From positions 1 through 42,776 of IMG/VR virus record IMGVR_UViG_2874945390_000010: DNA of 42,776 nucleotides, one strand, 5' to 3'. Origin of the DNA: a virus. Lineage: Duplodnaviria; Heunggongvirae; Uroviricota; Caudoviricetes. Each line of letters starts with the position of its first letter. Within the stretch, counting starts at the first letter, position 1. Position numbers: made by a program. Below, piece after piece: positions 24,601 to 27,600 of this stretch.

Positions 24601-27600
24601 CCTTAATTGATATATATGCTGGAGACGATGCAATATAAAAAGCTCGCCGTAGCGAGCTAATAAAATGTATTTCTCTGATATTATGTTTATTTGTATTAGC
24701 TCAGACTTGACATCACAGGTTTCGTATATAGAACATCATCAAATCTGTCAGTTTGCTATGAATGAGATATAGTAATTGAAGAGCTAACCTCGCATGTCAA
24801 AGCCAGATTTCTGAAAATCTCTGTAGACTTCCGGATTGTTGAAGGCCGGAAATTTGGCTTTATGAGCTGCGGACTTTATCGCTTCGCAATAGGCTTTATC
24901 ACCGTTACTGGTAGATATTTTTAACGCCGTGCCATCCTGAGAGAATTCCATATGCAACCTGCATTTTTTCCCTTTCCAGTTATGCGGCTCATCAAGTTTG
25001 GCATTAATTGCAGCTCTGATTCCCCGCGCTTGCGCCCCCCATTCATCCTGATCATCCCAGCGTCCTGAACTGCAACTACCTGTAGCAGTAGTTTTGTGGC
25101 AATCTGAAGGGTGTAAAGGTGTGCATCCCGCAACAAAACCGACCCAAAAAGTCAACATAACGATTTTCTTTAATCCCACTTCTTGCTCCTCAATCCATTA
25201 AAATCTCAGCAATAGTAGTTGTTACGTCCGCCACTGGCTCAGAGCTGACTATCCGCTAAATTTAGCTCAGTGCCGTAGTTGTGTCAGAACAAACCTAAGC
25301 CGAAACCGTTTATTACAAAACAATAAATATCAGGGTTTAAAATCCAGCACCCCATTTTGAAATACTTTATATACTTCCGGCGAAGGGGGGGCAGGTATAT
25401 CAGCATTCTTTATCGCATTCATCGCTTCACGACATAAATCGAGGTCTCCACTTTCTCTTTTAACCTCCAGTAGAAGGCCATTCGGGGCCATATGCATTCT
25501 CAGTGTACACTCTTTTCCTGAATACTTACTCGCATCCCCGAACTGTTTTTCGATGGCGCTCTTGATTTGATGGGCATACAGACGGATATCCTCACTAACA
25601 TCAGAAGTACGTTCAGATGAACTCACATACTGTGTCTCTATTGCTTTATCGGAGTAATATGATGTACGGTCATGATAATTTGTCGATACAGCATCAGTGC
25701 ACCCGATAATAATCCCACTAATAATCAACGTAAGAATTGATGCGCTACGAAAACCCATTTTTCCTCACATATGTCATATAGTAAAGGATTATATATACCG
25801 TTGTTTTGGACGCTCAAACAGCGAATCAGATCAAATAAAACGCACATTTGTTAACATTTACACAAAGTCTGCGTGGGATATTCTGAAAGAATATCCATAA
25901 TGTGGAGAAAATCTATTGAAGTGCATGGTGCCAGGTGCCTCCCGGTGAATTCAGTACCAGCACCTGAATCCGCGATTATCCCATATACCTACTCGCTGAT
26001 TGCCCCTCCGCACAGGGGGATTCACCATGCCAGTTTCTTTTAACAAACTCCCCGCAAACCAGACAACAGTCAACCGCCTGAATTGTGAAGTATTTAAAAA
26101 TTTCTCCCGCTAACTGATACCCGGCTAACAGTCTGGCGTTTTCTTTTTCAGCAACGGGAAAGCAACAACCCTGTTATCGTGTCGTCTGCTCTTCCTGATA
26201 AGCTAATGGCGGTTTGTGATGGTGGCCCTTGCTGGATTTGAACCAGCGACCTGGCGATTATGAGTCGCTCGCTCTCACCACTGAGCTAAAGGGCCGGGAG
26301 CAGAATAATAACGGTCCGTAATTAATTCCGCAATAAAAAACCCGCTCGGCGGCGGGTTGTAGAAACTCTTCTAACGTCAGGCATAAAAAGCCCATCGTTA
26401 TGACGAATTTACCACAGATTCCGGAAAAATCAACCTTGTTACCTAGTTACCTTTTTTAACTGCCGCTCAGCCCATGCTTCTTCAATATCAAACCGGGTCA
26501 CCAGCGCATCATAGAATTTCTTAACTGTTTTTTCCCCATGACGCGCGTGTTATCTGGTTTGTTACCTCGCATATAGCATTAAATACCTCCGTTGATGGTA
26601 GTCTTTCATAGCCACGACCACCACAACGCTGGCAGTCTCTGATAACAGGCATACCACGTTTTACCACTCTTCACGGTGAATGGCGACACCACGCCCACGG
26701 CAATCCTTACAGGCGGTGGAAACCTCACCCTTTCCGCCACACTCCGGACAGGCAACTTTTACCACCTCCCTGACTTTTTTCCATTCTTCCCAGTAAGACG
26801 GATACACACCTTTCGTACACTTTGCCCATACCGGCGGCTTACCATCCGGATACTGGACCTTGTTTGTAAAAACTACGCTTTCAATAAATTTTTCCCCATA
26901 GCAACAAGGGCACTGCTTTTTACTCGCTGCGCTGCGGGCATAATCCTCAAAAGCGTACGAAGCCATAATGCGCATCACTACCGGTTTTATTTCTGCCGGA
27001 AGTTTTCTCAACGCCGCCACACGATCGCACCGACTGAGTGCATAATCTGCCAGTAATTCTGTTGCCCGCGCCCTGTCATTCATACTGATGCCCATTTTCC
27101 CCAGGAACGCAGAAAACCCCATCTCAGCCCGATTCTGTGTCATGCCCTGCGCGGCCATCACATCAGTGATACTCAGCGCATCTTTTGACGTTGAGGCCGA
27201 TGCATCGGTCAGGCCAGGGGATTTTGGGGAGTAGTATTTCGGTAAATCTTCCAGTTTCATTTTTTGACCTGCTCTTCATGCATTATGGGGTAAATCTTCA
27301 CCCCCATACGTCCACCAGATACTGGCTGACCACGAACGATATTGATTTCATCAAACTGCTCATCGTCCATTAACACTCCCGCATGCGTCAGCGCATCCAG
27401 CGGTGCTTTCAGGATATTGTCCAGGTCGCGACGACGCTTATCCGGTGGCTCTGCAATCACCTTTATCGCCAGCCTTCCGGACAGGCTTAATTTCAGCCGC
27501 TGCTGGCGAACAATAAGCGCCACAGCCCGGCGATAACGCTTTCCCTCCTCCGAGATAAAATATGTGCTGCCACGGCGTCGCCAGTAAGTGTTCACCGTCG

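Follow-up and report, generated by a model that had tools for sequence, protein, structure and literature searches.

The C-terminal domain of Escherichia coli TolA (TolA-III; PDB 1TOL, 2X9A, 3QDP/3QDR, 1S62) binds both host and foreign ligands through the addition of a β-strand. Colicin N (ColN), the N1 domain of the filamentous-phage protein g3p and the N-terminus of TolB all add their strand to β3 of TolA (A415-K420), where D418 and K420 provide the main contacts through hydrogen bonds of their backbone (PMC4339652; PMC7391070), and colicin A (ColA) adds one to β2 (L375-P380), aided by K368, K379 and K396 (PMC3365938). The dissociation constant is ~40 µM for TolA-TolB, as compared to ~1 µM for ColN-TolA, and blocking the TolA-TolB contact gives rise to a full tol phenotype (PMC4339652). 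Here, we describe two adjacent genes of a complete lambdoid prophage (IMG/VR record IMGVR_UViG_2874945390_000010, positions 1 to 42,776; this whole stretch is referred to as the window), each predicted to encode a lipid anchor, a flexible or Cys-containing tether of ~25-33 residues and a complete TolA-III. We favour, tentatively and at somewhat below an even chance, the reading that these proteins are outer-membrane-tethered, energy-uncoupled TolA-III decoys, which catch Tol-dependent bacteriocins and the g3p protein of filamentous phages.

The closest precedents are laboratory dominant-negatives, namely secreted TolA-III and periplasmic g3p N-domains, whose mechanism is the same as the one proposed here. 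Levengood-Freyermuth, Click and Webster (1993) reportedly observed that TolA-III alone, when secreted to the periplasm, renders cells colicin-tolerant and leaky. Periplasmic g3p N-domains are described, in a source that summarises the work of Boeke et al. (1982), as conferring colicin tolerance and Ff resistance (PMC3102678). These constructs were engineered, soluble and overexpressed, whereas the prophage proteins are natural, predicted to be lipid-anchored and present in two divergent versions. Small outer-membrane lipoproteins that protect their carrier against phages include Llp of T5, Cor of the phi80/N15/mEp phages and the plasmid-encoded TraT, with Llp and Cor also protecting against colicin M (PMC3594210; bioRxiv 10.64898/2026.03.26.714494). 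These proteins, however, act by binding and blocking a receptor in the outer membrane (FhuA or OmpA), and their sequences are unrelated, whereas the prophage proteins would mimic a periplasmic co-receptor and not mask a receptor at the surface. A full-text literature search returned no functional study of the latter and no characterised system of this architecture, in agreement with an earlier note on this DNA, whose author knew of none; the mentions of 'TolA' found in prophage papers were annotation labels only.

The upstream and downstream genes are referred to as copy 2 and copy 1, respectively (Table 1). The resemblance of their C-termini to TolA-III, proposed in the earlier note, is borne out, far beyond chance, by Pfam, a sequence search of the PDB and AlphaFold2/Foldseek. 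The TolA C-terminal family PF06519 (gathering score 25) matches residues 49-140 of copy 2 with 82.6 bits (E 2.4e-23) and residues 44-125 of copy 1 with 54.6 bits (E 1.3e-14), and a Pfam scan of both copies gave nothing besides TolA and TonB_2. In phmmer searches of the PDB, E. coli TolA 334-421 aligns with copy 2 at 59% identity (E 5e-28) and with copy 1 at ~31% identity (E 5e-9). The AlphaFold2 models, in which the predicted local distance difference test score lies above 90 across the TolA-III part of both copies, show the three-helix, three-strand α/β fold of TolA-III. Their best Foldseek matches in the PDB are the TolA-III chain 2x9a_B, complexed with g3p of phage If1, for copy 2 (template modelling (TM) score 0.96, root-mean-square deviation (rmsd) 0.7 Å) and the TolA-III structure 3qdp for copy 1 (TM 0.92, rmsd 1.1 Å). 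The cysteines of the TolA disulfide pair (Cys363-Cys388) are invariant in the alignments of both copies, with the bond itself being predicted. Copy 2 ends in ...PEVYKVFQNGVLDFKP and E. coli TolA in ...QAVYEVFKNAPLDFKP; the C-terminal LDFKP of copy 2 is identical to TolA 417-421, so that the closeness of the two ends pointed out in the earlier note is real.

Apart from sequence identity, the copies differ from E. coli TolA in their lipoprotein signal, their short tether and their location on a mobile element. The possibility that they represent TolA proper was ruled out by their scores against the full-length TolA model NF007065 (107.8 and 53.7 bits, both below the cut-off of 213), by the lack of the N-terminal transmembrane anchor and the long helical domain II of TolA, and by the position of both genes, which lie outside the tol-pal operon in the late region of the prophage, after Q and before the holin gene. 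Matches to the NCBIfam TolA models are restricted to the last ~80-100 positions (293-386 of 387 for copy 2), and copy 2 alone passes TIGR02794 (75.6 vs 59.45), with a match that spans only positions 265-362. In the absence of a transmembrane helix and domain II, the proteins have no means of energy coupling to TolQR.

Both copies pass a lipoprotein rule of the PROSITE PS51257 type (basic n-region, hydrophobic h-region, lipobox Cys at 15-35), as do 115 of the 119 members of one family and 25 of the 28 of the other. Their h-regions comprise 13-14 residues, with mean Kyte-Doolittle values of 2.1 and 2.4, and among family members the lipobox is kept while the h-region sequence diverges. The description of two adjacent minus-strand lipobox genes in the earlier note was thus exact, down to the coordinates and end sequences. 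Each copy has Thr at position +2, and Asp is found at this position in none of the family members, which predicts that both proteins are sorted by the ordinary Lol route to the outer membrane, on its periplasmic side; nothing supports the exposure on the outer leaflet that had also been suggested. The signal peptides are followed by 25-33 residues that are unstructured in the AlphaFold2 models, and in copy 1 this part (aa 20-45) has low model confidence. Its segment TPLHPSDCHKTTATGSCSSGRWDDQDEWG, located behind the Cys predicted to bear the lipid, contains two extra cysteines and is nearly invariant across genera. In the segment SSGRWDDQDEWG of the same protein, SSGRW…WG loosely resembles the colicin TolB box, DGSGW…WG. 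Copy 1 starts with GTG, preceded by GAGGAG, and this start is supported by its plasmid homologues, in which the aligned codon is ATG (MGVKK).

The strands that TolA-III offers to its ligands are preserved to different extents. The β3 strand of E. coli TolA-III is conserved in both copies, and β2 is largely kept in copy 2, which retains L375, L376, K379 and K396 in addition to the unchanged LDFKP and, hence, the β3 site and most of the β2 site. Copy 1 retains only β3 character (FDMRG). In an alignment, residues D418, F419 and K420 were at least as conserved among 46 short lipoprotein homologues as among 55 full-length TolAs.

As decoys, the two proteins would display the same β-strand-augmentation edges as TolA at the periplasmic face of the outer membrane. 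Colicin translocation domains would meet these edges just past the outer membrane, either directly or via colicin-bound TolB, and the N1 domain of g3p from pilus-specific filamentous phages would do likewise. Lacking a link to TolQR, a decoy would hold its ligand but not pull it in, so that capture would be non-productive and the cell tolerant, and the presence of two divergent copies could widen the range of ligands. With TolA binding TolB weakly in comparison to ColN, the affinities should favour the invaders. This reading builds on domain identity, fold, lipoprotein signals, the absence of coupling domains, purifying selection and mobile-element distribution, all of which are directly supported by our analysis, and from these we infer where the proteins are located, what they bind, that the lysogen expresses them and that they confer protection. 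The kept β3 edge, the purifying selection and the recurrence on mobile elements provide circumstantial support for the idea of a decoy or of an action on Tol-Pal.

The pair is widespread in E. coli. It occurs contiguously and just upstream of a holin gene in 776 of 5426 complete genomes, with one or both genes present in 1339 of them. Of 80 prophage loci from IMG/VR, 77 have the same order, STnc100 – copy 2 – copy 1 – holin, the start-to-start spacing of the two genes being 579 nt in 76 of these, and a match to STnc100 accompanies the cassette in 79, whereas the surrounding Q gene, tRNAs and endolysin differ among the loci. This combination of a fixed interior with variable surroundings suggests that the cassette moves as a unit. 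A conserved place beside lysis cassettes, for which the earlier note suggested a survey, applies to the pair, but not to the copy 1 family as a whole, which is also found on plasmids and chromosomes. In a prophage of Shiga toxin-producing E. coli (STEC), a diverged copy 2 (66-74% identity) stands alone in the slot Q – tRNA – (stx position) – nanS-p. Either gene was detected in only one of the 50,697 phage records in INPHARED (mEp460_ev081), and BFVD returned no viral structure with this fold at E ≤ 0.001.

The family that includes copy 1 (80-90% identity) reaches much further and is represented in ~600 plasmid records and, within the complete E. coli genomes, at 525 plasmid places. In sampled I-complex (IncK2/Z, MPF_I) plasmids (L012, L017, L019), a homologue with ~88% identity follows the nikB relaxase gene at a distance of 68 bp, and on pO157 (L013) one is located between the psiB/psiA/hok leading region and toxB. 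Plasmids that make pili thus carry the family, and it is conjugative pili that TolA-dependent filamentous phages use as receptors (PMC3102678), a distribution that fits a function in trapping such phages. A library-wide HMMER search for copy 2 yielded 333 relatives; among the best 150 of these, 84 have ≤175 residues, at least 44 of which possess a lipobox, and others carry plain secretion signals. Stand-alone exported TolA-III domains are, accordingly, a broad class. One of them is encoded on a 10-kb CloDF13-like plasmid of Klebsiella (NZ_CP053877.1, L011), where a two-gene overlapping operon (5451-6184) specifies a lipoprotein TolA-III of 123 amino acids (aa) and a Sec-secreted TonB C-terminal domain of 121 aa (WP_001237044.1, WP_072354022.1). 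The lipoprotein has the same architecture as the prophage proteins, comprising a lipobox (LLLTAC), a short tether and a TolA-III ending in APLDFRP, and is ~39% identical to copy 2; it differs in being paired with a TonB C-domain, in an operon that diverges from one for a cloacin-like bacteriocin, its immunity and lysis (7030-9216). The presence of a family member beside a bacteriocin operon is again consistent with a decoy. On the Klebsiella IncFII/IncR plasmid NZ_CP091060.1 (L016; 5229-6258), a small TolA-III gene lies behind a gene for a thioredoxin-fold (DsbA-like) protein, a neighbour that would suit a need of the domain for disulfide formation.

The prophage itself is read on the minus strand of the window and contains cdtABC, tail fibre genes, lom, head and tail genes, lysis genes and the Q antiterminator gene as well as replication and immunity genes, DicF, a recE-like exonuclease gene and an integrase gene adjoining tRNA-Ser. 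It is a lambdoid prophage that converts its host to production of cytolethal distending toxin (CDT) and also carries lom. The position of the pair between the tRNA/terminator and the pinholin gene, given in the earlier note, was confirmed by gene and feature calls, and a DUF1327 gene stands between the P21-type holin and lysozyme genes. Late transcription through the cassette would begin downstream of the Q gene. The region ~25759-26300 of the window has only the tRNA with the anticodon CAT and lacks the ~713 bp segment of most E. coli relatives (compared with L001 4992-6414), which consists of a DUF3927 gene and tRNA-Arg. Like the lambdoid late morons (stx, bor, lom), the cassette has a lower GC content (0.37-0.46) than its flanks (0.50-0.55) and its own terminator-like site, and it occupies the Q-tRNA-holin slot that is taken by stx in Stx phages, whereas fold and presumed function differ. 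We therefore infer that it is moron-like, based on the terminator-like site and low GC content observed, with the promoter-like site falling within the number expected by chance.

Table 1. Positions of the two TolA-III genes, their protein segments and other features in the window.
Feature	Residues (aa)	Position	Strand	Details
Copy 2	142 in total	25330-25758	-	Upstream gene
Copy 2, lipoprotein signal peptide	1-20	25699-25758		Lipobox IIGC, Cys20
Copy 2, Ser/Thr-rich disordered linker	21-53	25600-25698		
Copy 2, TolA domain III	54-142	25333-25599		Cys84/Cys109 = TolA Cys363/Cys388
Copy 1	131 in total	24784-25179	-	Downstream gene
Copy 1, lipoprotein signal peptide	1-19	25123-25179		Lipobox VAGC, Cys19
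Copy 1, conserved Cys-containing N-part	20-45	25045-25122		CHKTTATGSCSSGRWDDQDEWG
Copy 1, TolA domain III	46-131	24787-25044		Cys73/Cys98; C-terminal FDMRG
Sigma-70-like promoter candidate		25788-25817	-	TTGAGC-18-TATAAT, 10/12; 30 nt upstream of copy 2 ATG
STnc100 small RNA family (Rfam match)		25869-26059	-	110 bits vs gathering score 47; directly upstream of copy 2
tRNA, anticodon CAT		26220-26295	-	Met (ARAGORN); tRNA-Ile (PGAP, related records); downstream of late-promoter region
Terminator-like hairpin, tR'-like		26339-26358	-	Downstream of Q
Q-type antiterminator		26661-27260	-	PF03589
Intrinsic-terminator-like hairpin and T-run		24641-24658	-	Between copy 1 and holin; closes the two-gene cassette
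P21-type (pin)holin open reading frame		24317-24589	-	PF04971, E 2e-35; annotated 71-aa form would start at 24532
Phage lysozyme	 	23409-23942	-	PF00959; hydrophobic N-terminus
Rz-like spanin		22948-23427		After lysozyme
cdtC		1-573	-	Part of complete CDT operon at prophage end
cdtB		570-1391	-	Part of the same operon
cdtA		1388-2215	-	cdt operon spans 1-2215; PF03498; phrog_5985, E 1e-141
lom		5999-6856		
IS009 (Rfam match)		2631-2829	-	
sok antitoxin RNA, hok/sok (Rfam match)		29585-29755	-	
DicF (Rfam match)		36521-36572	+	

Judged by their sequences, both genes are functional and under purifying selection. Compared with a variant of 82% identity, copy 2 has a ratio of nonsynonymous to synonymous substitution rates (dN/dS) of 0.33; for copy 1, comparison with its plasmid homologues gives 0.12, and 0.08 in its TolA-III part alone. 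These values bear on the notion that the genes are non-functional debris, derived from tolA fragments that were acquired by a phage. Although copy 2 bears the label 'tolA, partial, missing N-terminus, pseudogene' in some PGAP records, neither reading frame is interrupted, each has a ribosome-binding site of its own, and both start with a lipoprotein signal peptide that TolA lacks; moreover, diverged yet intact variants exist. We rejected the pseudogene reading based on dN/dS and the conservation of the pair in the 776 genomes mentioned above and regard debris as a hardly credible explanation. A recent tandem duplication was rejected as well: the copies are 29% identical to each other, with copy 2 being nearer to TolA than to copy 1, so that the word 'tandem' used in the earlier note does not hold in the sense of a duplication. 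In other records, PGAP labels copy 2 as an intact 'cell envelope integrity protein TolA', and RAST-type records list it as 'TolA protein' and the holin as 'phage tail fiber protein' (annotation examples: L001 4731-4991; L014 4001-4429). Such inconsistent annotation adds spurious extra tolA genes to genomes.

Two other explanations assign the proteins a function distinct from that of a decoy. As modulators of Tol-Pal, which we consider unlikely, the tethered TolA-III domains would bind the TolB N-terminus near TolB-Pal and compete with TolA, thereby loosening the outer membrane and raising vesiculation, and high expression from the late promoter would pre-weaken the envelope before lysis by holin, endolysin and spanin. 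The location of the genes, which directly precede the holin gene of the late operon in a fixed arrangement, would suit this role, as would the conservation of the TolB-binding β3 edge and the tol phenotype associated with a blocked TolA-TolB contact. In addition, a TolA-annotated prophage gene of enterohaemorrhagic E. coli (EDL933_2012), a possible homologue, is reported to be induced 32-fold by ciprofloxacin (PMC11125564). However, the phage already has an Rz-like spanin and thus owns the step of outer-membrane disruption, the affinity of TolA for TolB is weak, a terminator-like site parts the cassette from the holin gene, and close homologues are found on conjugative plasmids and chromosomes that lack a lysis cassette. 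It is likewise improbable that the proteins are accessory envelope lipoproteins whose TolA-like fold binds another partner by strand addition, unrelated to the ligands of Tol. Such a partner might be an outer-membrane protein, a peptidoglycan-related factor or a host molecule, and the proteins would serve stress resistance, serum resistance or virulence, similar to the lambda morons Bor and Lom. The virulence-converting nature of the prophage (cdtABC, lom) and the proximity of the pO157 homologue to toxB are consistent with this possibility, and so are the low identity of copy 1 to TolA-III, its conserved Cys-containing N-part, which points to an extra interaction, and the singleton state of its family in varied chromosomal neighbourhoods of many Enterobacterales. 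On the other hand, the conservation of the ligand-binding strand in the lipoprotein homologues tracks that in genuine TolA, copy 2 resembles E. coli TolA-III closely and has an identical C-terminal strand, and the tie to a bacteriocin plasmid of the Tol-dependent type and to a TonB C-domain points to import machineries.

Several observations also weigh against the proposal that the two proteins are decoys. Copy 1 lacks all three lysines that aid ColA binding (K368E, K379S, K396H), and its N-part, with an omega of 0.10, is selected as strongly as the rest of the protein, which a plain tether would not need. A decoy that binds TolB should also weaken Tol-Pal, a costly effect in bile. PADLOC gives no match. 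A sigma-70 scan found seven promoter-like sites in the region, as compared to 5.0 ± 2.1 in shuffled sequence, and scans upstream of the STEC variant of copy 2 and of the Enterobacter and IncK homologues found nothing above shuffled sequence; since the promoter evidence thus lies within chance, expression could be late only, starting from pR'. Furthermore, the copy 1 family is represented by a lone chromosomal gene in ~27 of the 30 Enterobacterales species representatives found, and these chromosomal singletons fit a physiological role in the envelope as well as a role in defence. Their hosts include Enterobacter, Citrobacter, Klebsiella, Leclercia, Raoultella, Serratia, Pantoea and Rouxiella, and no recurrent partner gene was found near them, the neighbours being housekeeping genes without relation to one another, for instance those for DcuB, radical SAM, U32 peptidase, SRAP, LysE and SulP proteins. 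In Lelliottia wanjuensis (L190), a copy 1 homologue (5001-5387) lies directly upstream of a full-length TonB gene (5839-6687), a single case that may be coincidence.

Pfam, PGAP and PHROGs already cover the domain as such, with PHROGs placing both proteins in phrog_5772, listed as 'unknown function'. The bare domain call is, thus, not new to databases, whereas the class of natural, exported and uncoupled TolA-III and TonB C-terminal domains on mobile elements appears to be undescribed. It is possible, if rather doubtful, that the mobile elements of Enterobacterales, including lambdoid prophages, I-complex and F-type plasmids and CloDF13-type bacteriocin plasmids, routinely carry uncoupled TolA-III lipoproteins and secreted periplasmic TonB C-domains as co-receptor decoys. 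If so, they would provide a general, previously unrecognised form of immunity that acts at the translocation step, directed against bacteriocins and pilus-specific filamentous phages, and conjugative plasmids would use it to make up for the exposure to phages that comes with a pilus.

If the two prophage proteins are indeed decoys, about one in four E. coli genomes would carry a factor for colicin tolerance and filamentous-phage exclusion that mimics a periplasmic co-receptor, and the same would be true of pO157, I-complex resistance plasmids and many other Enterobacterales. This would change how sensitivity to colicins and phages is read from genomes, matter for therapeutics based on bacteriocins or phages with a Tol-dependent entry, and help to account for the way in which conjugative plasmids withstand pilus-specific phages. 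For the Tol-Pal field, the family would represent a set of natural, selected dominant-negative variants of TolA-III, whose substitutions would report which of its interfaces are tunable.

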